Origin: Gammaproteobacteria bacterium
Lineage (GTDB): Bacteria; Pseudomonadota; Gammaproteobacteria; Steroidobacterales; Steroidobacteraceae
Reading direction: 5' to 3'
DNA: 64,000 nt
Assembly (NCBI GenBank): GCA_025357915.1
Contig: JANYLH010000044.1
Location: 14,390 to 78,389 of the forward strand
Positions 29,220-51,200 of this stretch are shown piece by piece. A model generated the notes under the pieces. The model did not search any database, had not been told where the DNA came from, and saw nothing but the letters and a program-made list of their open reading frames with translations. The position numbers and the translations under genes were made by a program. Every line of letters begins with the position of its first letter. Positions within the stretch are counted from its first letter, which is position 1.

Positions 29220-29223
<4 letters not shown>

Positions 29224-32223: not shown

Positions 32224-32225
32224 TC

Positions 32226-32780: not shown

Positions 32781-33235
32781 CCATGCGCGAGCTGATCCTG
32801 ATGCGCCACGCGGAAGCCCTGCCTGCCGCGATCGACGCCGACGATTTTTCGCGGCCGCTTTCCGACGCCGGGCGCGCCGCGGCGGCGCGCGCCGCCCGCG
32901 AGCTCGCAGGCAGCGCGGCTATCGAGCGCGTGCTGTTCAGTCCGGCGCGACGCACCAGCGACACGGCCGCGATCGTGGCGGGCGAACTCCCGCTCGAGCG
33001 CGCGCGACTCCAGGAAGTGCCCGAGCTCTATCTGGCGACACCGGCCGCGGTGCGCGCCGCCATCGCCCGTTGGCACGGCGACGCGCGCACACTGCTCATC
33101 GTCGGCCACAACCCCAGTCTCAGCGAACTCGGCGGCGACCTGACCGGCAAGCTTGCGCATACCCACCTGCCCACGGCAGGATTCTGGCGCCTGCGTCTCG
33201 ACGACGACGCGTGGCAGTCGCTGACACGACCATGA
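32774..33235 (+). CDS. sixA: phosphohistidine phosphatase SixA
   Basis: The LILMRHAEA (RHG/A) histidine-phosphatase motif and a later GHNP motif are present. About 150 aa, as in E. coli SixA. Confidence 0.75.
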   Translation: MVAMRELILMRHAEALPAAIDADDFSRPLSDAGRAAAARAARELAGSAAIERVLFSPARRTSDTAAIVAGELPLERARLQEVPELYLATPAAVRAAIARWHGDARTLLIVGHNPSLSELGGDLTGKLAHTHLPTAGFWRLRLDDDAWQSLTRP

Positions 33236-33251
33236 ACAGTGCGCGTGCGCG

Positions 33252-34043: not shown

Positions 34044-34053
34044 GGACGCTGGC

Positions 34054-36288
34054 ATGAGCGCGCTGCCAGGCCTGCTGCCGCGCCTGTGGCGTTTACGGCC
34101 GGGGCGCCGCTTTCTGCTCCGCCTGCTGCTCTCGGCGCTGCCACTCACGCTGCTGCTGCCGCATGCCTTCGGCCAGCTGCCGATCGGGTTTCTGCAGCGT
34201 TTCGAAAGTTACCTGTACGACGTCCGCGTCCGCTGGACCACGACGCCGGTTCGCGATCCGCGCGTCGTGATCGTCGACATCGACGAGGCGAGCCTCACGG
34301 CCGAGGGCGAGTGGCCGTGGTCGCGCGAGGTCTTCGCCCGACTGGTCGATCGCTTGTTCGACGACTACGGCGTGCGCGCGCTGGGCTTCGACGTCTTTTT
34401 TGCCGACCCGCAGCAGCCGGGTGCGCTCAGACTCCTCGACGAGCTCAGCCGGGGTTCACCGCCCGCGCTCGCCGCGCGCCTGGCCGGACTGCGGCCGCGC
34501 TTCGAGACCGACCGCGTCTTCGCCGAGGCGCTGATCGCCCGCGACACGGTGCTCGGTTACGTCTTCAAGCAGAAACTGCAGCCTGGGGACCGGCCTGAGA
34601 AGGGCCGGCTGCCGCGGGCGCAGCCGCTGTCGATGCCGCCCGGCGCGCGGCTGCTGCAGCCCGCTGGTTACGTCGCGAACCTCGGCGCACTGCAGGAGAA
34701 CGCCGCGGCCGGCGGCTTCTTTGACACCTCGCTGGTGGACGAGGACGGCGTGGTCCGCCGGATGCCCTTGCTCCAGTACTACGGTGGCCGGGTGTACGAG
34801 TCGCTGAGCCTCGCGCTGACGCGCCTGGCCCTGCACTCGCCGCCGCTGTCGCTCGGCATCGACCCGGCCACGGGCGCGTTGCAGGAAATCCATTTCGGCG
34901 AGCGGGTGGTACCGGTGGACCGTGCCGCCGCGGTGCTGGTGCCGTTCCGCGGACCGGTCGGCTCCTTTCCCTATGTATCGGTGACCCAGGTGCTGCACGG
35001 CACCGCGCCCGCAGCCACGCTCAAAGGCGCGATCGTGCTGGTGGGCGCGAGCGCTCCCGGGCTGCTGGACCTGCGTGCGACGCCGGTCGGCAAGGAGTAC
35101 ATCGGTGTGGAAGCGCACGCCAATGTGATCGCAGGGCTGCTGGACGGCACGATCCGTTACGTCCCGACCACGACGCCGTGGATCGAGGCCGGCACGCTGC
35201 TGCTGCTCGCGCTGCTGACCGCTGCGCTGCTGGCGCGTTCGCCACTCGCGGGAGTATTGACGGTCGCGGCGCTCCTCGCAGCGCTGTGCGCTGCCAATCT
35301 GCTCGCCTGGCAGCGCCTCGGAATCGTGCTGCCGCTCGCCTCGAGCCTGAGCTACGTGCTGGTCGCCGCACTGCTGCATCTCAACTACGGCTATTTCTTC
35401 GAGTCGCGCCGCAAGCGACGGCTCGGACGGCTGTTTGGGCAGTACGTCCCGCCAGAGGTCGTGCAGGATCTCGACGCCACCGAGACCGACATTTCGCTGG
35501 CCGGCGAGAGTCGCGTCATGAGCGTGCTGTTCTCGGACGTGCGCGGCTTCACGACCATCTCCGAGGGACTGGACCCGCGCTCGCTGAGCCAGTTCATGAA
35601 CGAGTTCCTGACGCCCATCACGGCCGTGATCCGCCGTCATCACGGCACCATCGACAAATACATGGGCGACGCCGTGATGGCCTTCTGGGGCGCGCCGCTC
35701 GCCGAGCCCGCCCACGCCGCGCGGGCCGTGCGTGCCGCCCTGGACATGGTCGCGTGCCTTGAGGGCGTCAACGCCAGCTGTCGCGCGCGCGGCTGGCCCG
35801 AGATCCGCATCGGCGTGGGCATCAGCTCCGGTCCCATGAACGTGGGCAACATGGGCTCCGAGTTCCGGATGGCCTACACGGTGCTCGGCGATACCGTGAA
35901 CCTGGGTTCACGGCTCGAGGGGCTCACGAAGGAATACGGCGTCGACATCATTGTCAGTGCCGCTACGGCCAGCGCGGTGCCGGAAATGGCTTTCCGGGAA
36001 CTGGACCTCGTGCGCGTCAAGGGCAAGCACGAGGCGATCGCGATCCTGGAGCCGCTCGGGCCGCGCGCCGGGCTGGCGCCCGCGACGCTCATCGCTTGCG
36101 AGGAGTTCACCGCCGTGCTTGTCGCCTACCGCAAGCGCGACTTCGCGGGCGCCGCGACGCGCTTGGCCGCACTGCGCGCACGCACGGATCATCGTCTATA
36201 CGAATTGTACGCGGCGCGGATCAGCGCTTACCTCGAGGCCCCGCCGCCGCCGGAGTGGGACGGAGTCTACACATTCACCAGGAAGTGA
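34054..36288 (+). CDS. CHASE2 sensor domain-containing class III adenylate/guanylate cyclase (adenylyl-type residues)
   Basis: An N-terminal TM is followed by CHASE2 (VVIVDIDEASLTAEGEWPWSREVFARLV) and three TMs. The cyclase domain has LFSDVRGFT, IDKYMGDAVMAFWG and YTVLGDTVNLGSRLE. Confidence 0.85.
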   Translation: MSALPGLLPRLWRLRPGRRFLLRLLLSALPLTLLLPHAFGQLPIGFLQRFESYLYDVRVRWTTTPVRDPRVVIVDIDEASLTAEGEWPWSREVFARLVDRLFDDYGVRALGFDVFFADPQQPGALRLLDELSRGSPPALAARLAGLRPRFETDRVFAEALIARDTVLGYVFKQKLQPGDRPEKGRLPRAQPLSMPPGARLLQPAGYVANLGALQENAAAGGFFDTSLVDEDGVVRRMPLLQYYGGRVYESLSLALTRLALHSPPLSLGIDPATGALQEIHFGERVVPVDRAAAVLVPFRGPVGSFPYVSVTQVLHGTAPAATLKGAIVLVGASAPGLLDLRATPVGKEYIGVEAHANVIAGLLDGTIRYVPTTTPWIEAGTLLLLALLTAALLARSPLAGVLTVAALLAALCAANLLAWQRLGIVLPLASSLSYVLVAALLHLNYGYFFESRRKRRLGRLFGQYVPPEVVQDLDATETDISLAGESRVMSVLFSDVRGFTTISEGLDPRSLSQFMNEFLTPITAVIRRHHGTIDKYMGDAVMAFWGAPLAEPAHAARAVRAALDMVACLEGVNASCRARGWPEIRIGVGISSGPMNVGNMGSEFRMAYTVLGDTVNLGSRLEGLTKEYGVDIIVSAATASAVPEMAFRELDLVRVKGKHEAIAILEPLGPRAGLAPATLIACEEFTAVLVAYRKRDFAGAATRLAALRARTDHRLYELYAARISAYLEAPPPPEWDGVYTFTRK

Positions 36289-36440
36289 GCTCGGGCGCGC
36301 ACCGACAGGGGCGCCCGGTTGCGATGAAAAACCTGCTGGCGCAAGATACGCCGTCTGCGCGGGCTTTCGGGCGGATGCTGGTCGAGCGTTGCGGCGTGCT
36401 GCAGCGACGGGCGGCGACAATCACTTGATCCGGGAGTCAA

Positions 36441-37784
36441 ATGCAGCCATCACCTCGCCGGCGCCGTAGCTGCTTCGCCTGCGCCGTATTCACCCTGATG
36501 GCAATGACGGGACTGGCCCGTGCCACTGCGCCCACCGACCTCGACCTGCTCCTGGCGCAGTGCCAGTCGCAGCTCGACGCTGGCCACAGCGCCGACGCCT
36601 ACTCCCTGCTTTCGGCACATGAAGCGGAATTCGGCGGCCTCGCCGCCTTCGACTACCTCTACGGCATGGCGGCGCTCGACAGCGGCCACGCTTCCGAGGC
36701 CGGCTTTGCCCTGGCCCGCGTGGTGGCGATCGAGCCTGACTTCGACGGCGCGCGCATGGAACTGGCCCGCGCCTACTACGCGAGTGGCGACTACGAGTCG
36801 GCCCGCACCCAGTTTGCCTTCTTGCGCGAGCGCAGCCCACCGGCGCCCGCGCGCGCGCTCATCGATCGCTACCTTGCCGCCATCGACGACCATGTGGCCG
36901 TCTTGCGCCCGCGCCTGGTACTGAATTTCGATGGCGGCGGCGGCTACGACTCCAACGCCAATGGCTCGACCGCCGACCGGCAATTTCTCGGGTTCAATCT
37001 CGACGCCCGCAATGTGGCTGCCTCGACCGCGTTTGCCGATGCGACCTTCAGCGCGAGCTACGTGCGCCCGCAGGGGCGCCGCCTCGGCTGGACGGGCGAT
37101 CTGGCCGCGAACCAGCGCTGGAACCCCGGCGCTCACTTCGTTGACCAGTCGCTCCTGTCCGGCGCGCTGGCACTGGCCGGGCGGTTCGGCGAATGGCGGA
37201 CCGCGCTCGGCGTCAACGGCTATTGGGCCGCGCTGGATGGCGCTGGCCACGAGTGGAGCGGCAACGTGCAGGCGCGGGCGACGCATCCGATGGGCGCGCA
37301 CTGGTCTGCGACCAGCAGCGTCTCGTACGGCGCGCTGCGCTACCTGGATGAACGCCTCAGCCTGCTGGAGGTCAACCGCTTGCTCGGGAGCGTGCGGATC
37401 GACCGCGGCGGCCTCGCCGCCGGCGGCATCCTCTCAGTGACGCTGCTCGCGGGCCATGACAACGCGCAACAGGTCAGTTCACCGTATGGGGGTGCCCGCT
37501 ACGGCGCGCGCGCCTCTTATGCCTGGCAGGCGGGGCCGCGCGTCCGCGCGGTCGTCGACGCTGGCGGCCTGCGCAGCCGCTACGCGGGTGGTGCCGGTTT
37601 CTTCGGCCTCGCACGGCGCGATACCCAGTACTCGGCGCTGGTGCTGCTCGACATCGACGGCGCGCCGGCCGCGGGCTGGCACGTACAGCCGCGCCTGCGC
37701 TACACGCAGAACGACTCCAATGTTTCGCTCTACGCCTACGATCGCTGGGAAGCCGGCATTTTCCTGCACCGGACCTTTCACTAG
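36441..37784 (+). CDS. TPR + C-terminal beta-barrel outer-membrane protein, Slam/DUF560 (type XI secretion)-like
   Basis: A signal peptide is followed by a TPR-like N-terminal region of about 130 aa. The remaining roughly 300 aa are Gly/Asn/Tyr/Arg-rich with alternating-pattern segments. The size (447 aa) and architecture match Slam proteins. Family assignment is by pattern only. Confidence 0.5.
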   Translation: MQPSPRRRRSCFACAVFTLMAMTGLARATAPTDLDLLLAQCQSQLDAGHSADAYSLLSAHEAEFGGLAAFDYLYGMAALDSGHASEAGFALARVVAIEPDFDGARMELARAYYASGDYESARTQFAFLRERSPPAPARALIDRYLAAIDDHVAVLRPRLVLNFDGGGGYDSNANGSTADRQFLGFNLDARNVAASTAFADATFSASYVRPQGRRLGWTGDLAANQRWNPGAHFVDQSLLSGALALAGRFGEWRTALGVNGYWAALDGAGHEWSGNVQARATHPMGAHWSATSSVSYGALRYLDERLSLLEVNRLLGSVRIDRGGLAAGGILSVTLLAGHDNAQQVSSPYGGARYGARASYAWQAGPRVRAVVDAGGLRSRYAGGAGFFGLARRDTQYSALVLLDIDGAPAAGWHVQPRLRYTQNDSNVSLYAYDRWEAGIFLHRTFH

Positions 37785-37801
37785 CCTCCACGGGAATCCT
37801 C

Positions 37802-39442
37802 ATGAGCGCACGCACCTGTCGCCGCACCGACCGCCGCCTCCAGATCCTGCTCAGGGTCATGGCGCTGCTCGCCTTCAGCCCCTGCGCGCTTGCCGCGCAG
37901 GCGGGCAAGATCGTATTCGTGGCCGGCAACGTAACGCTGGAGGCGAGCCACCGCCCGCTCCAGCGCGGCGACACACTCAACACCGGCGACACGGTCGTGA
38001 CTGCGGCGGGCGCCCGCGCGCAGCTCTTGATGGGCGACGGCGCGCGGATTGCACTGCGTTCGGGGTCGCGCTTTCGTATCGATGCGTTCGAGCTTGGCGC
38101 CGCGGTCAGGAACCCGGCGGCCACGGCGGTCGCGGCCTCGACCGGGCGGAGCCTGAGCACGCTGCTCAGCGGTGGTTTTCACACCGCCTCAGGCAGCATT
38201 GGCAAGGCAGATCCGTCCGCGTACGAGGTGCGCGTGCCGGTCGGCACGCTCGGCATCCGCGGCACCGACTACGTAGCGGTGTACTGCCGCAGCGATTGTA
38301 CCGATGCGCCAGGACTGAAGCCCGGTGAACCGGTAAGAGACGGCCTGTACCTTGGCGTCTACTCCGGCAGCATCGTGTTTCGCGGCGGTGACCTTGAAGT
38401 CGTGGTCGCGGCGGGCGAGTTCGTGTTCATACCGGTGCCCGAACTCAAACCCGAACGGCTCCAGCTGCCACCGGCGCCGATAGTCGGCGACGGTGCCGGA
38501 CCACTCGACCTGGCAGGCGCCACCGCGGGCGTGCAGGCGCGCCCCGCCGGCAAGCACTCGGGTTTCGGTGATTCCGGCGGGGGTCATGGCCCGGCTTCCC
38601 CCGTCACGGAGCCGCCGCCGCCAGCCAACGGCACGGTCCAGCCGGTGGGCGGATCGGTGAACGGCGTGCCGATCGATCTGACGCCGGGCCAGCTGCCCAC
38701 ACGCAACGATTCCACCTGGATAACCGGCCCGGTGCGCGGCCTGTTCAGTCCCGGCAGCAACGCCGCGGCCACGACGCAGTATGGCTTTGGCGGTACAGGC
38801 GGCGGCGCCACCGTGCTGCCCGTGCTGGGCGATGCGGGGGCCGCTTTGCTGCAGATCGGCACAGCCACCGCCAGCGAGTCGGGGTTCGATGCCGCGACCG
38901 GACTGCGCTGGGGTCGCTGGAGCGGCGGCAGCGTCAACCTCGTCACCGCAACCGGCGGCAGCGTGCCGGTGCCGCTCGGGAGCGACAGCGTGCACTGGGT
39001 TGCCGGAAGCGGCTACGTCGATGCTGCCATCCCGGTGCTGCCGGTCAGCGGCACGGCGACTTACAACCTCGCAGGCGCCACCCGCCCGACCGACGGCCTG
39101 GGCAACCTCGGCACACTCAACAGCCTTAAGCTGACCGCCGACTTCAGCGCGAACGCAGTGACCGCAGCCCTGGCGCTGACCATCGCCAACGTGGACTGGA
39201 TCGCCAGCGGCAACGGCTTCATCCTCGCGGGCTCGAAGACGACTGGCCCACAGTTCAACGGCGCGTTCGGCGCGCCCTCGATAGGCGGCTCCACGCAATT
39301 GGGCGGTGGCGGCCAGTTCAGCGGCTTCTTCAGCAATGTGCCCGGACAGGTATCGGGCGCGCCTGGCGCAGCCGGCATCTCCTATACCCTGTTCGCGCCA
39401 GGGGCTGGCACTGTATCGGGTGCAGCGGCACTCAGCCGATGA
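37802..39442 (+). CDS. secreted FecR-domain protein with TbpB/fHbp-like C-terminal 8-strand-barrel motif (candidate Slam cargo)
   Basis: It has a signal peptide and a FecR domain (GKIVFVAGNVTLEASHRPLQRGDTLNTGDTVVTAAGARAQLLMGDGARIALRSGSRFRI). The C-terminus reads GTATYNLAG...LTADFSANAVTAAL...GQFSGFF...GAAGISYTLF, like TbpB-type barrel domains. Confidence 0.6.
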   Translation: MSARTCRRTDRRLQILLRVMALLAFSPCALAAQAGKIVFVAGNVTLEASHRPLQRGDTLNTGDTVVTAAGARAQLLMGDGARIALRSGSRFRIDAFELGAAVRNPAATAVAASTGRSLSTLLSGGFHTASGSIGKADPSAYEVRVPVGTLGIRGTDYVAVYCRSDCTDAPGLKPGEPVRDGLYLGVYSGSIVFRGGDLEVVVAAGEFVFIPVPELKPERLQLPPAPIVGDGAGPLDLAGATAGVQARPAGKHSGFGDSGGGHGPASPVTEPPPPANGTVQPVGGSVNGVPIDLTPGQLPTRNDSTWITGPVRGLFSPGSNAAATTQYGFGGTGGGATVLPVLGDAGAALLQIGTATASESGFDAATGLRWGRWSGGSVNLVTATGGSVPVPLGSDSVHWVAGSGYVDAAIPVLPVSGTATYNLAGATRPTDGLGNLGTLNSLKLTADFSANAVTAALALTIANVDWIASGNGFILAGSKTTGPQFNGAFGAPSIGGSTQLGGGGQFSGFFSNVPGQVSGAPGAAGISYTLFAPGAGTVSGAAALSR

Positions 39443-39452
39443 GCCCGCGCCA

Positions 39453-41861
39453 TTGCTGACCGAGCGCGTCTCGATCGCAGTGATCGGCGCCGGCCCGGCC
39501 GGCCTTTCGGCCGCGGCCCACGCCGCCGACCTTGGCATCCCGCACCTGCTGCTCGAGGCGAGTCCGGGTCACGCCAACACCATCCGTAAATACCAGAAGG
39601 GCAAGCACGTCATGGCCGAGCCAGGGGCGCTGCCGCTGCGCAGCCCCCTGCCGTTTGCGGCCGCGGTCCGTGAGGCCGTGCTCGAGGGCTGGGACGCCGG
39701 ACTCGCGGCGCATCGCGTCAATGTCCGCTACGGCGCCGAGGCGGTCGCCATCAGCGGCTCGCGCCCGCAATTCCAGATCGCGTTGAAGGATGGCAGCGTG
39801 GTCCACGCCGAGTGCGTCGTGCTTGCAATCGGCGTGCAGGGAAATCCGCGCAAGTTGGGCGTGTCCGGCGAAGACCTGGCTTGCGTGCAATACCAGCTCG
39901 ACGATGCCGACGCCTATCGCGACGAGGCCATCGTCGTCGTCGGCGCCGGCGATGCCGCGATCGAGAACGCGCTGGCGCTGTCGAAGCGTAACCGCGTCTG
40001 CCTGGTGAACCGTGCCGCCGAGTTCTCGCGCGCCAAGGAAGGCAACCTGAGCGCGGTGCTCAAGGCAATCGAAGCCGGCACGCTCAGCTGCTTCTTCAAG
40101 AGCTCCTGTGCGCGCATCGAGGCCAGTGCCGGCGCGCAGCGAGGTTATCGCCTGACGCTCGACACCGATACCGGCGAGGCCAGCGTCGCGTGCGACCGGA
40201 TCATCGCCCGGCTCGGGGCCATCCCGCCGCGGCAATTTCTCGAGGCCTGCGGTGTCGGGTTCCCGGGGCCGCAGCCGACCGCGCTGCCTATCCTGTCCGA
40301 CCAGTACGAGTCGAGCGTGCCCGGGCTGTACGTGGTCGGTGCGCTCGCTGGCTATCCGCTGATCAAGCAGGCGATGAACCAGGGCTATGAGGCGGTCGAG
40401 TACAGCCGCGGGCGCGCTGTGGAGCCGGCCGACGAGCCGATCCTGCGCGAGCGGTTCGCACCGCTCCCCTTCGGCCTGACGGTCGCCGGCACGCTGGCGT
40501 TGATCCGCGAGCGCGTGCCGCTGTTCGCGGAGGTGAACCCGTTGCTGCTGCGCGAGCTGGTGCTGGGCAGCGAAGTCCACGCACCCGCGTCCGGCACCGT
40601 GCTGTTCCGCAAGAACGACTACACCAATTCGTTTTACACGATCATAAATGGCGGCGTCGACATGGAACTCGGCGACGAGGGCCAGCAACGCATAGCACTG
40701 CGCCAGGGTCAGTTCTTCGGCGAGGGGAGTCTGCTGTCCGGCCGTCGGCGCGCCGGCAGCGCGCTGGCCGGCGCCGGCTGCGTGGTGCTGGAGACGCCGC
40801 GCCGCGAGATCCTCAAGCTCATGAGCTCGGTCGACGGGGTCCGGCGCGTGGTCGACGAGCTGTTCATCATCCGCGCGATCCAGTCAAGCTTCGCGACCGA
40901 CGCCTCCTTCGACGAACTGCGCACGGTCGCCGCCGGCGCGCGGCTCAACCGCTACCGGCCGGGCGAGATGCTGTTCGAGGAAGGCGCGGTCGCCGACTGC
41001 CTGCACCTGGTGCGGAGCGGTTCGGTCGCGGTATTGCGCCAGCTCGGCGGGCGCGACGTCGTTACGTCGTATGTTGCCGCGGGCAACTATGTCGGCGAGA
41101 TCGGCCTGCTGGGCCGCACGCGGCGTACGGCGAGCGTGCGGGCGAACGTCGCCACCGAGACCGTGAGCATTGACGCCGCCGCCTTCGACCAGCTGCTGGC
41201 GCGCAACGCGGCGCTGCGCGAGCGCATCCAGGACACCATCCGTGAGCGGCTGGCCGCGAACGCGCGCATGCAGGGCCAGACCCAGGCGGGCGACCTGATC
41301 TCGTTTCTGATGCAGCAGGGCCTGGGGGAGGCCACCGACGTGCTGCTGATCAACGAGTCGCTGTGCGTGGGCTGCGACAACTGCGAGAAGGCCTGCGCCG
41401 AAACGCACGGCGGCACCTCGCGCCTCGACCGCGGGGCCGGGCCGAGCTTCGCGCAGGTGCACGTACCCACCTCCTGCCGGCACTGCGAGGACCCGCACTG
41501 CATGACCGATTGCCCGCCGGACGCGATCCGGCGCGCACCGGACGGCGAGGTGTACATCCGCGACAACTGCATCGGCTGCGGCAACTGCGAGCGCAACTGC
41601 CCGTACGGCGTGATCCAGATGGCCGCCGCGACGCCTGCCAAGCCCCCGCTGCTGGCGTGGCTGCTGTTGGGAAGCGGTCCCGGGCCCGGCGGCGTGGCCG
41701 GCGCGCCCGCCGACCCGCAAGCCGCGAAGAAGGCCGTGAAATGCGACATGTGCAAGGACCTGGGCGGCGGCCCCGCCTGCGTCCGCGCCTGCCCGACGGG
41801 CGCCGCGATCCGCATCAGTCCCGAGCGCTTCGTCGAGCTCGCCCATGGCAGCGATGTCTAG
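39453..41861 (+). CDS. fusion protein: FAD/NAD(P)-binding oxidoreductase + two cyclic-nucleotide-binding domains + four-cluster [4Fe-4S] ferredoxin (DmsB/NrfC-like)
   Basis: VIGAGPAGLSAA (FAD), VVVGAGDAAIENA (NAD(P)) and GLYVVGALAG are present. The cNMP motifs are FFGEGSLL... and YVGEIGLLGRTRRTASVRA. The Cys motifs are CVGCDNCEKAC, CRHCEDPHCMTDCP, CIGCGNCERNCP and CDMCKDLGGGPACVRACP. The start (TTG 39453) is inferred and uncertain. Confidence 0.8.
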   Translation: MLTERVSIAVIGAGPAGLSAAAHAADLGIPHLLLEASPGHANTIRKYQKGKHVMAEPGALPLRSPLPFAAAVREAVLEGWDAGLAAHRVNVRYGAEAVAISGSRPQFQIALKDGSVVHAECVVLAIGVQGNPRKLGVSGEDLACVQYQLDDADAYRDEAIVVVGAGDAAIENALALSKRNRVCLVNRAAEFSRAKEGNLSAVLKAIEAGTLSCFFKSSCARIEASAGAQRGYRLTLDTDTGEASVACDRIIARLGAIPPRQFLEACGVGFPGPQPTALPILSDQYESSVPGLYVVGALAGYPLIKQAMNQGYEAVEYSRGRAVEPADEPILRERFAPLPFGLTVAGTLALIRERVPLFAEVNPLLLRELVLGSEVHAPASGTVLFRKNDYTNSFYTIINGGVDMELGDEGQQRIALRQGQFFGEGSLLSGRRRAGSALAGAGCVVLETPRREILKLMSSVDGVRRVVDELFIIRAIQSSFATDASFDELRTVAAGARLNRYRPGEMLFEEGAVADCLHLVRSGSVAVLRQLGGRDVVTSYVAAGNYVGEIGLLGRTRRTASVRANVATETVSIDAAAFDQLLARNAALRERIQDTIRERLAANARMQGQTQAGDLISFLMQQGLGEATDVLLINESLCVGCDNCEKACAETHGGTSRLDRGAGPSFAQVHVPTSCRHCEDPHCMTDCPPDAIRRAPDGEVYIRDNCIGCGNCERNCPYGVIQMAAATPAKPPLLAWLLLGSGPGPGGVAGAPADPQAAKKAVKCDMCKDLGGGPACVRACPTGAAIRISPERFVELAHGSDV

Positions 41862-42744: not shown

Positions 42745-42754
42745 GGCCTGCGCC

Positions 42755-44464
42755 GTGCGTACCCTGATCCGCTTCGTCAGCCGCGCCACAGGCGGTGCCG
42801 TCGAGACCAGCGAGCGGCTCTTCGATGGCGAGGCGCTCACTCTCGGCCGCGCCACCGACCAGGTGCTGCAGTTCAAGGACGGACGTGTGGCATTCCAGCA
42901 CGCGCGGATCTTCCGGCGGGGCAGCCGCGTGCTGCTCGCCTGCCGCGCGCCGGCGACCGTCATCGTCAACGACGCATTGGTGCGCGAGGCGGAGTTGTCG
43001 CTGGGCGACGTACTGCGTCTGGGCGCAAACGTACTCACGCTCATCGAGCCGCCCGCCGGCGCCGATCTCGCGCTGACCTTCGAGCTCGATCCGGCTGCGT
43101 CCGAGGCGGAACTCGCGACGGTCAATGCACCGCTCCTGCTCTCGGGCGGGCGGCTCGGCAAGCGCGGCTGGTCCTGGCTGCTGTTTCTCACACTGCTGGG
43201 CGCGTTCCTCGTGCTGCCGGTATTGGTGTTGCCTGCGAAGTCCACCCGCGAGGCGCTGCGCGCGAGCTGGCTGCCGAGCGATCACGCCTATTCGCCCGGC
43301 GCGCTGCACTCGGTGCACCAGACGATCGGCGGTCGCTGCGAGGCGTGCCACCAGCAGGCCTTCGTCCGGGTACGCAACGAGGCGTGCCTCGCCTGCCACG
43401 CGACGGAACTGCATCGGCACGTCGACGCGGGCAGCCCACGGGCGCGTGCAGTGGAGCAGATGCGCTGCCTTGCCTGCCATTCCGGCCACGAACCCGCGCC
43501 GTTGCTGCGCAGCGGCTCCGGCGGCTGCGTCGCTTGCCACGCTGACGTCTCGCTCGCCGGCGACCCGCACCGCCTCGGTGCCGTCAGCGACTTCGGTCGC
43601 GCGCACCCGGAGTTCCGCGTCACCTTGCTGCGCCCGGACGCCGCCGGCATCGCTGGCGCGAGTGAGCGGGCGCGCCTCGATGCGCCCGCGCTGCGCGAGC
43701 ACTCGCACCTCAAGTTCTCGCACGCGCAGCACCTCGATCCGCGGGGAGTCAAGACGCTGGACGGGCGCCGGGTGCTCGGCTGTGCCGATTGCCACGTGCC
43801 CGAGCCCGGCGGCGGGCGCATGTTGCCGATCCGCATGGCGGCGCACTGCCAGAGCTGCCACCGGCTCGACTTTGACCCGGCGTTCCCGGACCGCCAGCTG
43901 CCGCACGGCGATGTGACCGGGGCGGTGAACACGCTGTTCGAATACTACAGCGCACGCTACCTGGAGGGCTGGCCGGATCCGAACGCGCGAGCGTCCGCCG
44001 GGCGCTTCGCGGCGACGCCTGGACCCGCGCTGGCACCGGCCGAGCGTGAGCGCCGGCTCGGCCTCGCACGCACGCGCGCCGCAGTGGTCGCGCGTGACCT
44101 CATCGAGCGGCGCGCCTGCGTCGTGTGTCATGAAGTACGCGTGGTCGCGGACGCGGCGCTGCGCTGGCAGGTCACGGCAGTACGGCTCACGCACGCCTGG
44201 TTCCCGGCTGCGCGGTTCGATCACGCGCAGCACACCACTACGCTGACGCCGTGCTCCTCGTGCCACGACGCGGCACATTCCACACAGTCCGCGGACGTGC
44301 TCATGCCACGCATCGCGACCTGCCGTCGCTGTCACGCGGGGAGCGGCGGCGCGGCGCCGCCCGCCGGCAAGGTGGCGACCGGATGTCCGGCCTGCCATGC
44401 GTTCCACGACCCGCGGCGCGCGCCCTGGGTTCCGGTGGCGCAGCCAACGGATCCGGGACGGTGA
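42755..44464 (+). CDS. FHA domain - single TM - decahaem c-type cytochrome (cytochrome c3/c7-like)
   Basis: An N-terminal FHA-like fold (LTLGRATDQVLQFKDGRVAFQHARI...VIVNDALV...LSLGDVLRLGANVL) is followed by a TM (WSWLLFLTLLGAFLVLPVLVLPA). Ten CXXCH motifs follow: CEACH, CLACH x2, CVACH, CADCH, CQSCH, CVVCH, CSSCH, CRRCH and CPACH. GTG start at 42755. Confidence 0.85.
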   Translation: MRTLIRFVSRATGGAVETSERLFDGEALTLGRATDQVLQFKDGRVAFQHARIFRRGSRVLLACRAPATVIVNDALVREAELSLGDVLRLGANVLTLIEPPAGADLALTFELDPAASEAELATVNAPLLLSGGRLGKRGWSWLLFLTLLGAFLVLPVLVLPAKSTREALRASWLPSDHAYSPGALHSVHQTIGGRCEACHQQAFVRVRNEACLACHATELHRHVDAGSPRARAVEQMRCLACHSGHEPAPLLRSGSGGCVACHADVSLAGDPHRLGAVSDFGRAHPEFRVTLLRPDAAGIAGASERARLDAPALREHSHLKFSHAQHLDPRGVKTLDGRRVLGCADCHVPEPGGGRMLPIRMAAHCQSCHRLDFDPAFPDRQLPHGDVTGAVNTLFEYYSARYLEGWPDPNARASAGRFAATPGPALAPAERERRLGLARTRAAVVARDLIERRACVVCHEVRVVADAALRWQVTAVRLTHAWFPAARFDHAQHTTTLTPCSSCHDAAHSTQSADVLMPRIATCRRCHAGSGGAAPPAGKVATGCPACHAFHDPRRAPWVPVAQPTDPGR

Positions 44465-46434
44465 AGCGCGCATCGGCCTGTCTCGCTCCACTGGCGGCGC
44501 TGACGTTGTCGGCCTGTGGCGGTGGGGGCGAAGTCGCTTCGGGTGTGCCCACAAGCCCGCCGCCCCCGGGCCTGGTCTGTACCGGCCAGTGCGCGAATGC
44601 CCTCACGCTGCTGTCGCAGGCGGACGTGGAGCGCACGATCGCGCAGGCGGTCGCCGAGGCGCAGGCCCGCGGCGCGCACGCCACCGTCGCGGTTGTCGAC
44701 CGCGTTGGCAACGTGCTCGGTGTGTTCCGCATGAATGGCGCGGCGAATACCGTCACGATCGGGTCGGGACTGGCCACAGGCGGTCTCGAGAACGTCACGA
44801 TTGTCCCTGACACAGTCGCGGCCATCGCCAAGGCCGTGACGGCGGCATACCTGTCGAGCGAAGGCAATGCGTTCTCGACCCGCACAGCGAGTCAGATCGT
44901 GCAGGAGCATTTCAATCCGGGCGTAGCGCTGGCGCCGGGCGGTCCGCTGTTCGGCGTGCAGTTCAGCCAGCTGCCCTGCTCCGATCTGATGGCGCGGGCG
45001 GGAGCCGCGCCCGCCCCTGGCCCGCAGCGCTCGCCGCTGGGCCTCGCGGCGGATCCGGGTGGCCTGCCGCTCTACAAGGCCGGCACGCCGGTGGGCGGCG
45101 TGGGCGTAATCGCCGATGGCCGCTACGGGCTGGATCGCAACGTGCTCGACACGGACGTGGATCTGGACGAAACGATCGCGCTCGCCGCGACCTTTGGGCT
45201 CGCGGCGCCCGACGATCGCCGCGCCGACCGGATCACGGCTGATGGCAGGACGCTGCGTTTCAGCGATGCGACGGTGGCGACGCTCGCCAGTGCGCCCGCT
45301 GCTGCGCCGTCATTCGCGTCCCTGGACGGCGTCGCGGGTCACCTGCTTGCAGTGCCCGGCTACGGCGCAGCGACGACGCGCGCGGGCCTCGCGTATGGCA
45401 CGAGCGCCTCGGGCATCCGCTCCGATGCCAGCGACTACCCGGGACTCGACGCGCAGGTGCTGGTGGACGCGAGCGATGCGCCCCGCTATCCGCCGCGCGC
45501 CGGCAGCGAAACCTCGGGTGCACTGAGTGCGACCGAAGTGCGCGAGATCCTGCGCGCGGCACTCGGCGTGGCGAACCGCACCCGCGCCCAGATCCGCCTG
45601 CCGCTTGGCTCGCAGGCGCGCGTCACCGTCAGCGTCGTCGACAGTCAGGGTGTAGTCCTCGGAATAGCCGCTATGCGCGACGCACCGGTATTCGGCGTCG
45701 ACGTCTCGCTGCAAAAGGCGCGCTCGAGCGCGTTCACGAGCTCGGCGGCCGCGGCCGCGGCACTCGCGGCTGCGCCCGATGCGGTCTATCTCGACGGTGG
45801 ACTGAGTGTGCTCGCGCGGGTGCCACTGGCCAGCTACGTGACGGCGACGCGCGCATTCCTGGGGTTGCCAGCAGCGCTCGGCGACGGCGGCGTCGCCTTC
45901 AGCGCGCGCGCGCTGGGCAACATGGCGCGACCGTTCTATCCCGACGGCGTCGACGGCACCCATGCCGGACCCTGGTCCAGGCCGGCCGCGGCGTGGAGCC
46001 CGTTCAGCACCGGCTTACAGCTGGATCTGGTTTATAACGCCCTGGTGCAGCATGTCGCCTTCGTGCTTGGCGCGGCACCCGACGTGGGCTTCAGTTGCAC
46101 CGGTGTCAGCGGCTTTGACACCGGCTTTGCTCCCGCCGCGCCCATCCCGGCGCTCGCCAATGGCCTGCAGATCTTTCCGGGCGGCGTGCCGATCTATCGG
46201 GACCACACGCTGGTCGGCGCGATCGGCGTGTCAGGCGATGGCGTCGACCAGGATGACATGATCGGCTTCCTGGGCGTCGATAGCGCCGCGCAACGCCTCG
46301 GCGGCTTCGGCAATGCGCCGCCCGACCTGCGCAGCGACACGCTGGTGCCGCGCGGCGCGCGCTTGCGCTATGTCGGCTGCCCGGTGGCACCGTTCCTCGA
46401 CTCGTCGACGCAGGACGAGTGCAGTGGCCGCTAG
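44461..46434 (+). CDS. lipoprotein with two GlcG/HbpS-like (DUF336, haem-binding/degrading fold) domains
   Basis: A lipobox (LTLSAC). Domain 1 reads LSQADVERTIAQAVAEAQARGAHATVAVVDRVGNVLGVF...GGLPLYKAGTPVGGVGV. Domain 2 reads VTVSVVDSQGVVLGIAAM...GGVPIYRDHTLVGAIGVSGDGVDQDDMI. GTGA overlap with the upstream stop. Confidence 0.7.
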   Translation: MKRASACLAPLAALTLSACGGGGEVASGVPTSPPPPGLVCTGQCANALTLLSQADVERTIAQAVAEAQARGAHATVAVVDRVGNVLGVFRMNGAANTVTIGSGLATGGLENVTIVPDTVAAIAKAVTAAYLSSEGNAFSTRTASQIVQEHFNPGVALAPGGPLFGVQFSQLPCSDLMARAGAAPAPGPQRSPLGLAADPGGLPLYKAGTPVGGVGVIADGRYGLDRNVLDTDVDLDETIALAATFGLAAPDDRRADRITADGRTLRFSDATVATLASAPAAAPSFASLDGVAGHLLAVPGYGAATTRAGLAYGTSASGIRSDASDYPGLDAQVLVDASDAPRYPPRAGSETSGALSATEVREILRAALGVANRTRAQIRLPLGSQARVTVSVVDSQGVVLGIAAMRDAPVFGVDVSLQKARSSAFTSSAAAAAALAAAPDAVYLDGGLSVLARVPLASYVTATRAFLGLPAALGDGGVAFSARALGNMARPFYPDGVDGTHAGPWSRPAAAWSPFSTGLQLDLVYNALVQHVAFVLGAAPDVGFSCTGVSGFDTGFAPAAPIPALANGLQIFPGGVPIYRDHTLVGAIGVSGDGVDQDDMIGFLGVDSAAQRLGGFGNAPPDLRSDTLVPRGARLRYVGCPVAPFLDSSTQDECSGR

Positions 46435-48226
46435 CGCAACTCGCGCCTGCGCGTGCGCGCTGGCCCTCGCCGGTGCGGGTCTTGCCACCGGCGTGGTCCG
46501 CGCCGGAGACGGGAGCACGACCGCGCCCTGCCCGCCCGAGTCCCCGGTCGCGGCCGAACGCAAGGCACCGGCGGTACCCGAGCTGCCCGGCTTCGCGCCC
46601 ACGCCGTGCAATCCGGCCGCGCTACCCCCACCGCGCGCGGACCAGCCGGGGACGCTCGCCGGGCTCCCGGATCGCTGGCGCATGGTCTCGACGCTGGGGT
46701 ACCCCGAGCGGCTCCACGACCCCTACCACGGCAACAACTGGTTGAAGGGCGATCGCCCGGCGTTCGGTGCTGACTGGTTCGTCAACCTCGCGGCGGTCGC
46801 GGATACCGTCGTCGAGCCCAGGCGCTTCCCGCTGCCAGTCGGCAACGTCGTCACCGAACGCCCGGGGAGCCTCGACGCCTACGGGCACGGCGCGAGCCAG
46901 CTCTATGCCCAGACCCTCGCCTTCGAGGCCGTCCTCTATCAGGGCGATACCGTATTCAAGCCGCCGGAGTGGGAGTTTCGCCTCACGCCCGTCTTCAGCG
47001 TCAATCGTGTCGAGGTAGGCGAGCGCGGCCTGGTGAACGCCGCCGCAGGCGCGCCGCTGTCGCGCACCGACACGGCGCTCGGGCTGCAGGCGGCGTTCGT
47101 CGATCGCCATCTGCGCAATGTTTCCGCGCACTACGATTTCGACAGCCTGCGCGTCGGCATCCAGCCGGTGACCGCGGACTTCCGCGGCTTCCTCTACACG
47201 GATGCGGCGCTAGGCGTGCGGCTGTCTGGCAACCGGGCCAACAATCGCTACCAGTACAACTTGGGTTGGTTCCGTCGCCTGGAGAAGGACACCAATTCCG
47301 GACTCAACGACGTGTTCGCTCGTGGCCTCGCCTCACTGCGCCATGACAGCGTAGTGCTCGCCAACCTGTACGCGCAGGACACGCCACTGCCCGGTTTCAC
47401 CTCGCAACTGGTGGTGGCGTACAACCGCAACCGGGAAGGCGGCGAACTACGCTACGACGGCAACGGCGCGCTGCAGCGTCCGGCGCAAATCGGTGATGGC
47501 CGCGGCCGCGACTACCAGGTGACCTACCTCGGCGTCAACGGCGATGGCCATGTCGGCGTGCTCAACGCGACCATTGCCGGCTACTTCGTATTCGGGCACG
47601 AATCGCGCGGCACCTTCGCCGCCGCCGCAGACCAGGTGCGCGCCTTCTTCGCAGCCGCCGAAGTGTCGCGCGACTGGGACTGGCTACGGGTCCGCGCTTC
47701 GATCGCGCTGCAGAGCGCCGATCACGATCCATTCGACCGGCGTGCCACCGGGTTCGATGCGATTGTAGAGAACCCGTTGTTCGCCGGCGCCGATACCAGT
47801 TTCTGGATCCGTCAGCCGGTGCCACTGATTGCCGGCGGCGGCGTATCACTGTCGGGTCGCAACGGCCTGCTCAGCTCGTTGCGCTCCTCGAAGGAATTCG
47901 GCCAGTCCAACTTCACCAACCCGGGACTGCAGCTGGTTGGCGTCGGCGCCGACGCGGACCTCACGCCGACGCTGCGGGTCAGCGCGAACGCCAACGACCT
48001 GCGCTTTGGCGACACGGCGGTGCTCGAGGTGGCGCGCGCGCAGGCATCGATCCCAAGACGCATCGGGCTCGACCTCTCGCTCGCGCTCAGCTGGCGTCCC
48101 CTCGCCACGCAGAACGTGGTCGCACGCCTGTCGGCCGCGAAGCTGCTGCCGGGCAGCGGCTGGAAAACGCTTTATGGCGGCGAGCAGGGCTATTCCATTC
48201 TCGGCAACCTGATACTGAGCTACTGA
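46424..48226 (+). CDS. putative outer-membrane beta-barrel protein (unassigned family)
   Basis: A signal peptide (ACACALALAGAGLATGVVRAGD). It contains abundant alternating aromatic/polar stretches such as YQYNLGWFRRLEKD, YQVTYLGVNGDGHVGVLNATIAGYFVFG and LDLSLALSWRPL. The C-terminus is aromatic (NLILSY). The GTG start at 46424 overlaps the upstream gene. Confidence 0.55.
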   Translation: MAASATRACACALALAGAGLATGVVRAGDGSTTAPCPPESPVAAERKAPAVPELPGFAPTPCNPAALPPPRADQPGTLAGLPDRWRMVSTLGYPERLHDPYHGNNWLKGDRPAFGADWFVNLAAVADTVVEPRRFPLPVGNVVTERPGSLDAYGHGASQLYAQTLAFEAVLYQGDTVFKPPEWEFRLTPVFSVNRVEVGERGLVNAAAGAPLSRTDTALGLQAAFVDRHLRNVSAHYDFDSLRVGIQPVTADFRGFLYTDAALGVRLSGNRANNRYQYNLGWFRRLEKDTNSGLNDVFARGLASLRHDSVVLANLYAQDTPLPGFTSQLVVAYNRNREGGELRYDGNGALQRPAQIGDGRGRDYQVTYLGVNGDGHVGVLNATIAGYFVFGHESRGTFAAAADQVRAFFAAAEVSRDWDWLRVRASIALQSADHDPFDRRATGFDAIVENPLFAGADTSFWIRQPVPLIAGGGVSLSGRNGLLSSLRSSKEFGQSNFTNPGLQLVGVGADADLTPTLRVSANANDLRFGDTAVLEVARAQASIPRRIGLDLSLALSWRPLATQNVVARLSAAKLLPGSGWKTLYGGEQGYSILGNLILSY

Positions 48227-48233
48227 CAGAGCG

Positions 48234-51200
48234 ATGCGCCACTACACCATCCTGCTGGCCTTCACGACGCTTGCCTGCCTGGCGCGCGGCGCGCCTGCGC
48301 AGGCTGCTGCCGACGAGGAAACGCCCGTCGAGCGCGCCTGGGTGACGGCGCCGTCCGCGCCGGCAAGCCAGACGCAATCGGCCGCGGATGCCAAGAGCGA
48401 GGGCTGCATCTCCTGTCACGCAGCCAGCGACGCTGCGAGCATGCACGCGGCGAAGGCGGTCGTGCTCGGCTGCACCGACTGCCACGGCGGCGATGCGTCA
48501 GTGCGCTGGCGCGGCGCGGCCTCAAAGAGTGATCCGCAGTATTCTGCGAGCCGCGATCGCGCCCACGTGCTGCCGCGCTTTCCGGCGAGCTGGCACTACC
48601 CGGACAGCGCCAACCCGGAGCGCAGCTACACGCTCCTGAACCGCGAGGCCCCGGAGTTTATCCGCTTTAAAAACCCTGGCGACTACCGGATCGCGCGCGA
48701 GGCCTGCGGCGCCTGCCATCTGCGCATCATCGAGGCCGCGGAACGGAGCCTCATGTCCACGAACGCGATGTTCTGGGGCGGCGCCGCGTACAACAACGGC
48801 ATCCTGCCGTTCAAGAACTACCTGCTCGGCGAGGGTTATACGCGCGAGGGCAAGTCGACGGTTATCGAAGGGCCACCCCTCACGCCCGAGGAAGCGTTGC
48901 AGCATGGCATCCTGCCCCGCCTCTATCCCCTACCGCGCTTCGAGACCATCCGGCCCGGCGATATCTTCCGGGTTTTCGAGGACGGCGGCCGCAACATCTC
49001 GAACCTGTTCCCCGAGACGGCCCTGCCGAACGTGTCGGGCGAACTGGAGCGGCTTGAGGAACCGGGCCGGCCCGATATCCGCCAGTCCAATCGCGGCCCC
49101 GGCACGGGCGCGCGCATCGCGGTGCCGGTGCTCAACATCCACAAGACGCGCCTCAACGACCCGCTTGCATGGTTCCTCGGCACCAACGACCAGCCCGGTG
49201 ATTACCGCTCCTCGGGCTGCAGCGCCTGCCACGTGGTTTACGCCAACGACCGCGACCCGGCGCACTCCGGGCCCTACGCGCGCTACGGGCACGAGGGCAC
49301 CTCGCAGCAGCGCGACCCGGTGATTCCGCGCGACCGGCCCGGCCACGCCCTGCAGCACGCGTTCACGCGCAGCATCCCTTCCAGCCAGTGCATGGTCTGC
49401 CACATGCACCAGCCGAACATGTTCATGAACACGTTCTACGGCTACACGATGTGGGACTACGAATCCGACGCGCCCTCAATGTGGCCCGGGCAACAGCGCT
49501 ACCCCACCGCCGATGAGACGCGGGCCGTGCTCGACCGCAATCCCGAGGGCGCCGCACCGCGTGGCAACTGGGCGGATCCCGGGTTCCTCAGCCGGGTCTG
49601 GGAACTCAACCCCGGGCTCAAGGATACGCAGTTCGCCGACTACCATGGCCACGGCTGGAATTTTCGCGCTGTCTTCAAGCGCGATCGCCATGGGCACCTG
49701 CAGGACAGCGCGGGCGCGATCGTCGCCAACGACGACCCGCAAAAGTGGGCCAAGGTCGTGCACATGGCTTCGGTGCATGTCGATGTCGGCATGCACTGCG
49801 TCGACTGTCACTACGGCCAGGACGCGCACGGCACCGGCCACATCCATGCCGAGGTCGCGCAGGCAGTCGAGATTGACTGCAAGGACTGCCACGGCACCGT
49901 GCGAGCCTACCCGACACTGCGCACTTCCGGTCCCGCAGCCGGCCCGAACGGCACCGACCTCGCGACGATTCGAAACCCCGACGGCCGTCTGCGCTTCGAG
50001 TGGCGCGACGGAAAACTGCTGCAACGCTCCGCCGTGGATCCCGCGAGGGAATGGGTGGTCTCGCTGGTCAAGGATTCGGTGACTCCAGGAAATCCGCGTT
50101 ACAACCCGCGCGCCGCGCGCGCCAAGCTCATGGCGAGGGATCCGCTGGGGCAGAAGTGGGGCACCGACGTCGCCTGGCCGCAACTCGCGCACAGCGACGA
50201 CAACATGGAGTGCTACTCCTGCCACACGTCGTGGACCACGAGCTGCGGGGGCTGCCACTTGCCGATTGAGGCCAACTGGAAGAGCGAGAAACACCGCTTC
50301 GAGGGCGGCACGAGCCGCAATTACGCCAGCTACAACCCGCAGGTGGCGCGCGACGACATGTTCCTGCTCGGTCGCCGCGGGCCGGTCGAGAACGGCAAGA
50401 TCGCCCCGGTGCGCTCGTCCTCGGCGCTGGTGCTGTCCTCGACCAACGCGAATCGCGAGCACATCTACGTGCAGCAGCCACCGATTGCAGCCTCGGGCTT
50501 TAGCTCACAGGCGATGAACCCGCACTACCCGCACACCGAGCGCAAGACCGAGACCAAGACCTGCAGTGACTGCCACCTGGCGGCCACGCGTGACAACAAC
50601 GCGATCATGGCGCAGACCCTGGGTCAGGGTACGCAGTACATCAACTTCGTCGGGCTCAACGCCTACCTCGGCACCGAGCGCGCGGTCGCCGCGGTGCAGG
50701 TAACCGAGTGGGAGGAGCCGCAGGCGGTCATCGGCAGCTACCTGCACCGCTATGCGTATCCCGATTACTACGCGGCACACCTGGCGCGCGGCCGGCAGCT
50801 GACGAACGCGGCCACGCACGCCTCCGGGCCCGCCAGCTGCGTGCAGCAACGCGGCGAATACCTGTACGCCTCCGAGGGCCATGGCGGATTGCGCGTCTAT
50901 GACATTGCCAGCATCGCCAACAAGGGAGTCAGCGCCCGGATTCTCAGCGCGCCGTTCTCGCCGTTGGGCCACGATACGCACGTGACCACGCGTGATGCCT
51001 CCTGCGTGGTGCTCGCGACCACGCAACCGGTGCAGCCCTCGCGCAACCAAGGTGCGCTGATGCGCGAGGCCAACCTCGAGCAGCCCTTCCTCGACGTCTA
51101 TCGTTACGCGTTCATCACTGACCGGGTCGAAGGGCTGATCCTGGTGGACATCGACACGCTCATGGACGGCAACTTCCGCAACAACCAGCTGCGGCGGGCG

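Follow-up and report, generated by a model that had tools for sequence, protein, structure and literature searches.

Here we analyze three neighbouring genes in a 64,000-nucleotide (nt) stretch of a Steroidobacteraceae genome (Gammaproteobacteria bacterium, assembly GCA_025357915.1, contig JANYLH010000044.1, positions 14,390 to 78,389; this whole stretch is called the window). The genes encode a membrane-bound cyclase with a CHASE2 sensor, a Slam/DUF560-type outer-membrane protein (OMP), and an exported FecR-domain protein ending in a lobe like that carried by cargo of the type XI secretion system (T11SS). The three open reading frames (ORFs) lie on the + strand at 34012/34054..36288, 36441..37784 and 37802..39442, separated by spacers of 152 nt and 17 nt, just as a first-pass annotation made from the letters alone had reported. 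The window has a G+C content of about 69% throughout, with no compositional break.

Architecture of the three genes

Gene 1 (34054..36288, + strand; 744 amino acids (aa) from its ATG, with an alternative GTG start at 34012) encodes an inner-membrane CHASE2 sensor joined to a class III adenylate/guanylate cyclase. Both Pfam matches are far over their cut-offs, CHASE2 at 193.7 bits (periplasmic domain, residues 43-388, nt 34180-35217) and Guanylate_cyc at 74.9 bits (residues 489-661, nt 35518-36036), and the order of CHASE2 domain, hydrophobic membrane segment and cyclase domain is the layout of CHASE2-class III cyclases, so named already in the first-pass annotation. In the 152-nt spacer that follows (36289..36440) a consensus scan found neither a terminator-like site on the + strand nor a sigma-70-like site, and scanning 33800-39600 for promoters and terminators turned up nothing promoter-like, nor any convincing terminator between the genes. 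Genes 1 and 2 are probably co-transcribed.

Gene 2 (36441..37784, + strand) encodes a 447-aa protein that we assign to the Slam/DUF560-family (T11SS-type) outer-membrane proteins on the basis of its AlphaFold2 model and the Pfam matches of its orthologues. A signal peptide (about residues 1-28, nt 36441-36524) is followed by a periplasmic tetratricopeptide repeat (TPR) domain (residues 33-155, nt 36537-36905; TPR_19 at 36.7 bits, helical in the model) and a beta-barrel (residues 158-446, nt 36912-37778). There were 164 homologues at E<=0.001, of which 68 were aligned (alignment A1), and the model computed from this alignment has a mean predicted local distance difference test (pLDDT) value of 92 and shows a signal helix, TPR helices and exactly 14 strands. 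DUF560 proteins are described as having 14 strands and an N-terminal TPR domain, with 16 strands marking off the PgaA-like proteins, whose homologues cross-match PF04575 (PMC8406197). Gene 2 shares with the Slam family the 14 strands, the signal peptide and TPR domain, and an adjacent partner with an eight-strand barrel. Scanned singly at E<=0.01, 48 of the 68 orthologues match SlipAM (PF04575, i.e. DUF560) and 61 match TPR_Slam. With 25-39 bits, all ten orthologues examined in detail exceed the SlipAM gathering score of 22, among them one (P0004) sharing 71% identity with the window protein, and their matches extend to the last model residue. The window protein itself matches SlipAM below that score, residues 367-446 falling on model positions 206-288 of 288 with the ends of both coinciding, and it lies under the Pfam line because of its own sequence divergence. 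We conclude from these profile matches that the orthologue family is most probably a diverged DUF560 branch. The first-pass proposal of a Slam-type protein therefore holds for the TPR domain, the 14-strand fold and the orthologues, and falls short for the window sequence taken singly.

Comparison of the gene 2 model with the PDB by Foldseek returned BcsC, PelBC, CymA, OmpG and porins as top matches. No Slam structure was among the top matches listed, and the list therefore supports only the architecture of a TPR domain with an outer-membrane barrel. Sequence and profile searches with gene 2 against PDB chains gave generic TPR proteins only.

Gene 3 (37802..39442, + strand; 546 aa) encodes what appears to be a Sec-exported, non-lipidated FecR protein with a T11SS-cargo-type lobe at its C-terminus. 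The protein collection contained 207 homologues, and the 58 with a single lobe were aligned (alignment A2). Across these the N-terminus is conserved as a hydrophobic segment ending in AxA followed by AGKVxFV, a site of the signal peptidase I type between the two. A lipobox-like string occurs in only 4 of the 58, and there is no conserved lipobox or N-terminal Cys, in keeping with the first-pass remark on its absence. Judged by these signals, gene 3 would fall in the soluble, non-lipoprotein class of Sec-exported cargo. The FecR beta domain (residues 33-220, nt 37898..38461, + strand) scores 33.5 bits against a cut-off of 24, and all 58 orthologues match FecR (PF04773), as expected from the first-pass reading of this N-terminus. 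Its best Foldseek match is the C-terminal cell-surface-signalling domain of PupR (6ovk_R, E 3e-6, root-mean-square deviation 2.5 over 159 columns), and the next is the anti-sigma protein BDI_1681. The domain stands directly after the signal peptide, and gene 3 lacks both the cytoplasmic anti-sigma domain and the transmembrane helix of FecR-type regulators. The only conserved cysteines of gene 3, C162 and C166 (CxxxC, nt 38285-38299), lie in a FecR-domain loop and are present in 58 of 58 orthologues and retained in the variants without a lobe described below. These two could be disulfide-bonded in a structural role or make up a redox or metal site, a point of note given the redox genes downstream.

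Between the FecR domain and the lobe lies a Gly/Pro/Ala/Thr-rich linker (residues 236-345, nt 38507..38836, + strand) that is disordered by model and by composition, with 24 G, 14 P, 12 A and 11 T among 110 residues and pLDDT below 50 over 239-302 and 317-345, at about 30 in the disordered stretch (239-345). The lobe follows (nt 38837..39436, + strand), consisting in the AlphaFold2 model of handle strands (348-401), which carry an invariant WGRW motif, and an eight-strand barrel (418-545), with ten-residue block means of pLDDT between 75 and 96 over the eight strands. Its consensus in the 58 orthologues (TGxAxYxLxGxTSPTD ... FxADFTN ... GxFSGFFS ... GAGLTYSL ... VSGAAAF) bears out the motifs that the first-pass annotation had picked out in this region. 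The modelled lobe has the handle and eight-strand barrel of T11SS cargo, and its top Foldseek match is HphA of Vibrio harveyi (8gm3, E 5e-5), accompanied by the LbpB N-lobe (4u9c, E 1.4e-4), TbpB (4o49/3pqs/9pa8, E 3e-4), fHbp (5nqx, E 1.6e-3), the NHBA barrel (5o1r, TM-score 0.65 on the target) and HpuA (9mr0). These proteins are Slam/T11SS substrates or bearers of their lobe, and lipocalins and nitrophorins rank below them in the list. Pfam scans found no cargo-barrel match in the 58 orthologues and no library match over the C-terminal 300 residues of gene 3, and sequence and profile searches against PDB chains gave nothing useful. The TbpB/fHbp/hemophilin-type barrel of the first-pass annotation is accordingly recovered by predicted fold and by structure comparison, not by sequence.

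Conservation of the pair and of the surrounding cluster

Neighbourhoods were compared in 80 loci, one genome per species, by ORF calling and assignment with hidden Markov models and phmmer. All 80 are from Gammaproteobacteria (Steroidobacteraceae, Woeseiaceae, Chromatiales, Fontimonas and Oceanococcus) and nearly all are metagenome-assembled. The gene order of the window recurs in about 80 species-level genomes at protein identities of 28-82%, an arrangement far from chance; the adjacency of a candidate cargo gene to a Slam-like gene, on which the first-pass annotation had leaned, is a conserved property. Wherever a locus retains the region, the FecR gene is immediately preceded by the Slam-like gene. 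Seeming absences of the OMP or cargo gene in three loci (L063, L022, L043) were scaffold gaps (runs of N) or artefacts of the ORF filter. The cyclase was found in 61 of the 65 loci with enough upstream DNA, and Fontimonas and Oceanococcus have the OMP/FecR-lobe pair by itself, with no cyclase nearby.

A phmmer scan with the lobe alone over 1.84 billion representatives gave 488 clusters, many with two to seven tandem handle-and-barrel lobes and lengths up to 3351 aa. Four of five such giants tested start with FecR, and the multi-lobe relatives examined, including P0309 and P0265, each come directly after a Slam-like gene. Since the pair can stand alone and the giants too are preceded by a Slam-like gene, the OMP/FecR pair is the tightest unit of the arrangement. 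Relatives of gene 3 of 800 aa have two lobes, as in TbpB. One giant, P0309 (L087 2004-8357), has window-like lobes (E 2e-24) beside one lobe whose TbpB_B_D score, 35.5 bits, exceeds the cut-off of 26, and distant relatives therefore bridge the window lobe to the TbpB family. Tandem lobes behind a single FecR domain were seen in P0265 (L088 7391-17446), P0309, P0251 and others. Apparent free-standing lobe proteins (P0245, P0242, P0243) proved to be pieces of frameshifted two-lobe genes in a long-read assembly, and a word-index search with the lobe alone returned fragments only; lobes existing as proteins of their own were therefore rejected.

At the other extreme, a clade of Steroidobacteraceae of at least 11 loci (L059, L061, L062, L064-L066, L071-L075, L077) has no lobe. 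The FecR protein here is about 300-330 aa long and stops at a Pro-rich tail (...PPPPGGN), having neither handle nor barrel, and the clade retains the cyclase, an intact Slam-like gene and the remaining cluster. The OMP of this clade keeps 31 of 36 family-invariant positions. Among its replacements are three arginines in barrel strands of gene 2, R313 (37377-37379), R357 (37509-37511) and R420 (37698-37700), each invariant in 55-58 of 58 lobe-containing loci and changed in the lobe-less clade to Q, to Q, and to G or A, respectively. This co-variation is suggestive of candidate lobe-contact residues.

The same trio occurs on plasmids of cultured Alphaproteobacteria, with the TPR-barrel gene first, the FecR-lobe gene second and the CHASE2 cyclase gene third. 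Among plasmid-borne CHASE2 cyclases the closest is that of pAMI5 of Paracoccus aminophilus (L084, 4380-10025). Ahead of it are encoded a TPR protein of 474 aa (SlipAM E 0.02) and a FecR protein of 655 aa whose C-terminus gives sub-threshold matches to TbpB_B_D (22.1 bits, E 2e-4) and to FHBP_C (E 2e-3). On plasmid p1 of Shinella sp. H4-D48 (L089, 4506-10676) the FecR protein has sub-threshold FHBP_C (E 2e-3) and TbpB_B_D matches at its extreme C-terminus. The window lobe and the Paracoccus lobe are not joined by direct comparison (hhalign probability 4.8%, hmmsearch non-significant), although the WGxW, TGSATY and vDF motifs do line up, and hhalign of the Slam-like family with the Paracoccus TPR protein covers the TPR domain and first barrel strand only (probability 90%). 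The neighbours of the trio differ from place to place: the divergent neighbour of the pAMI5 cyclase encodes a patatin phospholipase that binds cyclic nucleotide monophosphates (cNMP), locus L088 has a cNMP-binding Ser/Thr kinase alongside, and NHLP bacteriocin export genes come next in Shinella. The differing cNMP-binding neighbours indicate that the trio is modular and its output variable.

These patterns bear on whether genes 2 and 3 are merely unrelated neighbours, gene 2 being a polysaccharide-export TPR-porin of the BcsC/PgaA/PelB type and gene 3 a periplasmic FecR-like protein with a lipocalin-like domain. BcsC and PelBC, which have a TPR domain and a barrel, do head the Foldseek list of gene 2, PgaA homologues are known to cross-match PF04575, and nitrophorins and lipocalins appear lower in the list of gene 3. 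However, the gene 2 barrel has 14 strands and not 16, Pfam scans of the window genes found no polysaccharide synthase genes in the cluster, and T11SS-type lobes outrank the lipocalins. In addition, the two genes are adjacent in about 80 genomes and again in distant Alphaproteobacteria, and loss of the lobe coincides with the arginine replacements in the OMP. We regard this explanation as very improbable, and by strand count, context and conservation as effectively excluded; gene 3 as a dedicated partner of the gene 2 OMP is favoured.

The trio also heads a conserved cluster of about ten genes, overlooked in the first-pass annotation, that continues downstream over 39453-53272. In almost all loci the order is cyclase, Slam-like protein, FecR protein, cNMP-binding oxidoreductase, membrane protein, FHA-multihaem cytochrome, HbpS-like protein, a protein of no assigned kind and LVIVD-cytochrome, and in the window genes 2-10 are tightly packed, with overlaps or very short gaps. 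Gene 4 (39453..41861, + strand), with a likely TTG start 10 nt past the stop of gene 3, encodes a FAD/NAD(P) oxidoreductase with two cNMP-binding and 4Fe-4S ferredoxin domains (cNMP_binding 113.9 bits over two stretches, Pyr_redox_3 96.9 bits, Fer4 families). It was found in 64 of the 68 loci with enough downstream DNA, and its domains suggest that it probably reads what the cyclase produces. Gene 5 (41845-42744, + strand) encodes a 299-aa membrane protein with weak Pfam matches to DUF4405 and Ferric_reduct, and gene 6 (about 42752-44464, + strand) an FHA domain (25.7 bits) with a multihaem cytochrome c (Cytochrom_c3_2, 42.6 bits). Genes 7-10 (44461..53272, + strand) encode an HbpS-like protein, in which three stretches match, a 637-aa protein without Pfam match, a protein of 1246 aa combining LVIVD repeats with a region like cytochrome c7, and a c554-like cytochrome; the order of genes 7, 8 and 9 is conserved in most related loci. 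Scans of 16 neighbouring genes detected neither a sigma-70 nor a TonB-receptor domain. Upstream, at 29220-34043, lie suf Fe-S assembly genes (SufBD core, SufS-type aminotransferase, NifU_N, FeS_assembly_P), a His_Phos_1 phosphatase and a LigB-type dioxygenase, none of which is kept beside the cyclase in related loci and which are outside the conserved block. Most related loci come from sediment, soil or glacier-stream metagenome bins, and one (L054) from 'Bacterium MnTg04', which we take to be from a manganese-oxidising enrichment; these sources are a possible ecological hint for the cytochrome module.

Proposed input to the CHASE2 cyclase

The only CHASE2 system found with an identified signal and upstream component is NsrA of Sinorhizobium (S. 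meliloti). On pSymB of S. meliloti a 1219-aa ORF (L085, 4211-7870) joins, within a single chain, a FecR domain (85-179) and TPRs (about 250-606) to a barrel at the C-terminus. It stops at the start codon of a CHASE2 cyclase gene (7870-9819). By its sequence and position this ORF is taken to be NsrA. According to published work, the CHASE2 cyclases CyaK and CyaD1/CyaD2 need the outer-membrane protein NsrA for signal perception, and NsrA is described as an outer-membrane receptor in which only the barrel loops are modelled as surface-exposed. The fusion, with barrel loops alone exposed, therefore places FecR and TPR in the periplasm, and in module content NsrA appears to be a single-chain version of genes 2 and 3. 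Elsewhere, LysM-FecR proteins pair with CHASE2 histidine kinases in Burkholderia (the 'BiofilmReg' operon, a PA4035/PA4036-type pair), where the LysM-FecR partner is predicted to be extracytoplasmic with a peptidoglycan-binding domain.

We propose, tentatively and at a little short of even chances, that the three window genes form a tripartite envelope input module of a cyclic-nucleotide pathway, in which the OMP would export the lobe and a periplasmic FecR domain would signal to CHASE2. The Slam-like OMP would take the lobe across the outer membrane C-terminus first, to be shown outside as an antenna, a direction that agrees with the published model in which Slam recognises a C-terminal motif of the unfolded substrate first and passes the chain through its channel (PMC9090332). 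The N-terminal FecR domain would stay in the periplasm, held by the linker of about 110 aa, and would touch the periplasmic CHASE2 domain of gene 1 and so set cyclase activity. The resulting cAMP or cGMP would be read by the two cNMP-binding domains of gene 4, and this flavo-FeS oxidoreductase would then control the multihaem-cytochrome redox module downstream. The model accounts for the T11SS-type pair, the constant association of FecR with CHASE2, the NsrA fusion and the tolerance of zero to seven lobes. The more specific version, in which a T11SS translocon has been recruited for signalling, with the lobe or lobes threaded outside C-terminus first, FecR periplasmic, the linker lying inside the barrel and the whole gating the CHASE2 cyclase, is possible but somewhat unlikely.

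Several points weigh against the tripartite module. The window gene 2 protein reaches only 15 bits (E 0.019) for SlipAM and 19.5 bits for TPR_Slam, the latter against a cut-off of 35.2. Assignment of the window lobe as a cargo barrel comes from predicted structure, with moderate TM-scores (0.38-0.66 on the target), plus distant relatives, and none of the 58 gene 3 orthologues matches TbpB_B_D (PF01298) even at E<=1. The arginine replacements trace to a single clade and so count as one evolutionary event, and that same clade shows that the OMP has a role that does not require a lobe. The NsrA barrel has no detectable homology to the Slam-like barrel: hhalign of A1 with NsrA covers a TPR stretch only (probability 7.9%) and of A2 with NsrA the FecR domain only (probability 37%), and the parallel with NsrA would appear to be one of module content and function, not descent. 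Finally, to our knowledge the whole cargo crosses the membrane in every characterised T11SS, and partial translocation is without precedent there.

This last point leads to a canonical T11SS at the locus, in line with the first-pass reading, in which the whole FecR-lobe protein would be exported and released or held at the surface, FecR would bind an external ligand, and the signal would reach CHASE2 indirectly or not at all. Such export fits the signal peptidase I type signal of gene 3, its cargo-type lobe and its want of a lipobox, the non-lipidated T11SS cargo hemophilin, HrpC and HphA being released, and also the occurrence of the OMP and FecR-lobe pair without a nearby cyclase in Fontimonas and Oceanococcus. 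On the other hand, a FecR domain outside the cell cannot reach a CHASE2 domain in the periplasm. FecR is on the periplasmic side next to the TPR in the NsrA fusion, the LysM-FecR partners of CHASE2 kinases carry a domain for peptidoglycan, and lobe-less FecR proteins, which could not be canonical cargo, still accompany the OMP and the cyclase. We consider complete export unlikely. The first-pass suggestion of an extracellular FecR protein as ligand or co-sensor of CHASE2 is accordingly unsupported, both by the placement of FecR in NsrA and by the retention of a Slam-like gene in the lobe-less clade; a co-sensor role as such is plausible, with FecR probably periplasmic instead of extracellular.

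The lobe-less clade and NsrA would fit the opposite arrangement, with no translocation at all. Here the FecR-lobe protein would be wholly periplasmic, its lobe or Pro-rich tail docking on the TPR or periplasmic face of the OMP, the OMP loops would be the receptor, like those proposed for NsrA, and FecR would relay to CHASE2 in the way that it acts beneath FecA. NsrA joins the same three kinds of module in one chain as a receptor, the OMP of the lobe-less clade is under purifying selection as judged by its retained invariant positions, and the FecR domain matches the cell-surface-signalling domain of PupR, which is periplasmic in action. Yet all other known lobes of the TbpB/HphA type are exported, at the surface or secreted, an array of up to seven tandem lobes in a protein of 3351 aa resembles something extracellular more than a periplasmic adaptor, and the OMP orthologues are in a family shown in vitro to be a translocon (PMC9090332). 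A purely periplasmic partner therefore seems to us distinctly unlikely. In the tripartite module, with FecR inside and the C-terminal lobe outside, gene 2 would carry its partner across the outer membrane in part.

Comparison with known systems

The known T11SS (Neisseria Slam1/Slam2 with TbpB, LbpB, fHbp and HpuA; Xenorhabdus HrpB-HrpC and NilB-NilC; Acinetobacter/Vibrio HphA) are like the window in having a 14-strand DUF560 OMP with a TPR domain and an adjacent gene for a partner with a C-terminal handle and eight-strand barrel. The hemophilin/HphA class is, like gene 3, Sec-exported and not lipidated, and the two lobes of TbpB are echoed by the multi-lobe relatives of gene 3. In contrast, gene 3 begins with FecR where T11SS cargo has a metal-, haem- or host-protein-binding effector domain, the surrounding genes are for a CHASE2 cyclase and cNMP-binding outputs and not for TonB-dependent uptake, and the hosts are free-living sediment and soil Gammaproteobacteria. 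The window lobe, known here from sequence and models, is also too diverged for TbpB_B_D, and its lineages range from no lobe to seven. The first-pass annotation had called this an atypical cargo, and indeed we found no description of a FecR domain as T11SS cargo in the literature searched, nor any co-mention of CHASE2 with DUF560, T11SS, Slam-dependent or TbpB. In the portions of the T11SS papers available, main text and supplements, FecR appears only as a neighbouring regulator, and CHASE2 and cyclases go unmentioned. What is new, our results suggest, is a DUF560 OMP/cargo-type pair with an N-terminal FecR domain that is tied to cyclic-nucleotide signalling, and its wide conservation would befit a general device. 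All experimentally verified T11SS fall in one animal-associated cluster, with cargo for nutrient acquisition or adhesion, and the role of environmental clusters has been posed as an open question (PMC12282271). The branch described here is environmental and has a clear conserved partner of new architecture in a cyclic-nucleotide signalling context. If the more specific, threaded version of the module is right, no earlier T11SS would have had a role in signalling or a substrate translocated only in part. For a cyclic nucleotide to act directly on metabolism through a cNMP-binding flavo-FeS oxidoreductase that works with multihaem cytochromes would be unusual. Culturable hosts are available in Paracoccus aminophilus JCM 7686, Shinella sp. 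H4-D48 and Fontimonas sp. SYSU GA230001.

A second comparison is with cell-surface signalling by FecA-FecR-FecI and PupB-PupR, where, as is proposed for the window, a periplasmic domain of FecR fold beneath an outer-membrane barrel relays an envelope signal inward. Gene 3 differs in having neither an anti-sigma domain nor a transmembrane helix, a cyclic nucleotide would take the place of a sigma factor as output, and the neighbouring genes examined include no extracytoplasmic function sigma factor and no TonB-dependent transducer. For topology only, RcsF offers an analogy: it is threaded through OmpA/OmpC/OmpF, with its linker through the barrel, one end outside and the signalling domain in the periplasm. 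RcsF and gene 3 are unrelated proteins, and the polarity of RcsF is opposite, with an N-terminal lipid anchor outside.

The nearest parallels in signalling are with other partners of CHASE2, the factors recognised by CHASE2 domains having been stated as unknown in a Burkholderia paper of 2016. The LysM-FecR proteins of Burkholderia likewise show an exported FecR-domain protein as a recurrent CHASE2 partner, with LysM anchoring instead of an OMP-linked lobe and with a kinase output. A cluster in Campylobacterota, with a CHASE2 cyclase, a FecR-domain outer-membrane protein, a TPR protein and a phosphodiesterase, has the same three kinds of protein as the window, the comparison being by published description, without structural or T11SS assignment. 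In S. meliloti a CHASE2 class III cyclase adjoins FecR, TPR and beta-barrel outer-membrane modules as in the window. There they form one chain with a much larger barrel and without a TbpB-like lobe, whereas the window divides the modules between genes 2 and 3, with a barrel of the Slam family. Taken with the Paracoccus and Shinella trios, the window and NsrA suggest a common rule, that a FecR partner on an outer-membrane barrel feeds CHASE2. If this is true, FecR partners tied to outer-membrane barrels would be a general answer to the question of CHASE2 input, with NsrA as the fused version of what the window encodes in two genes.

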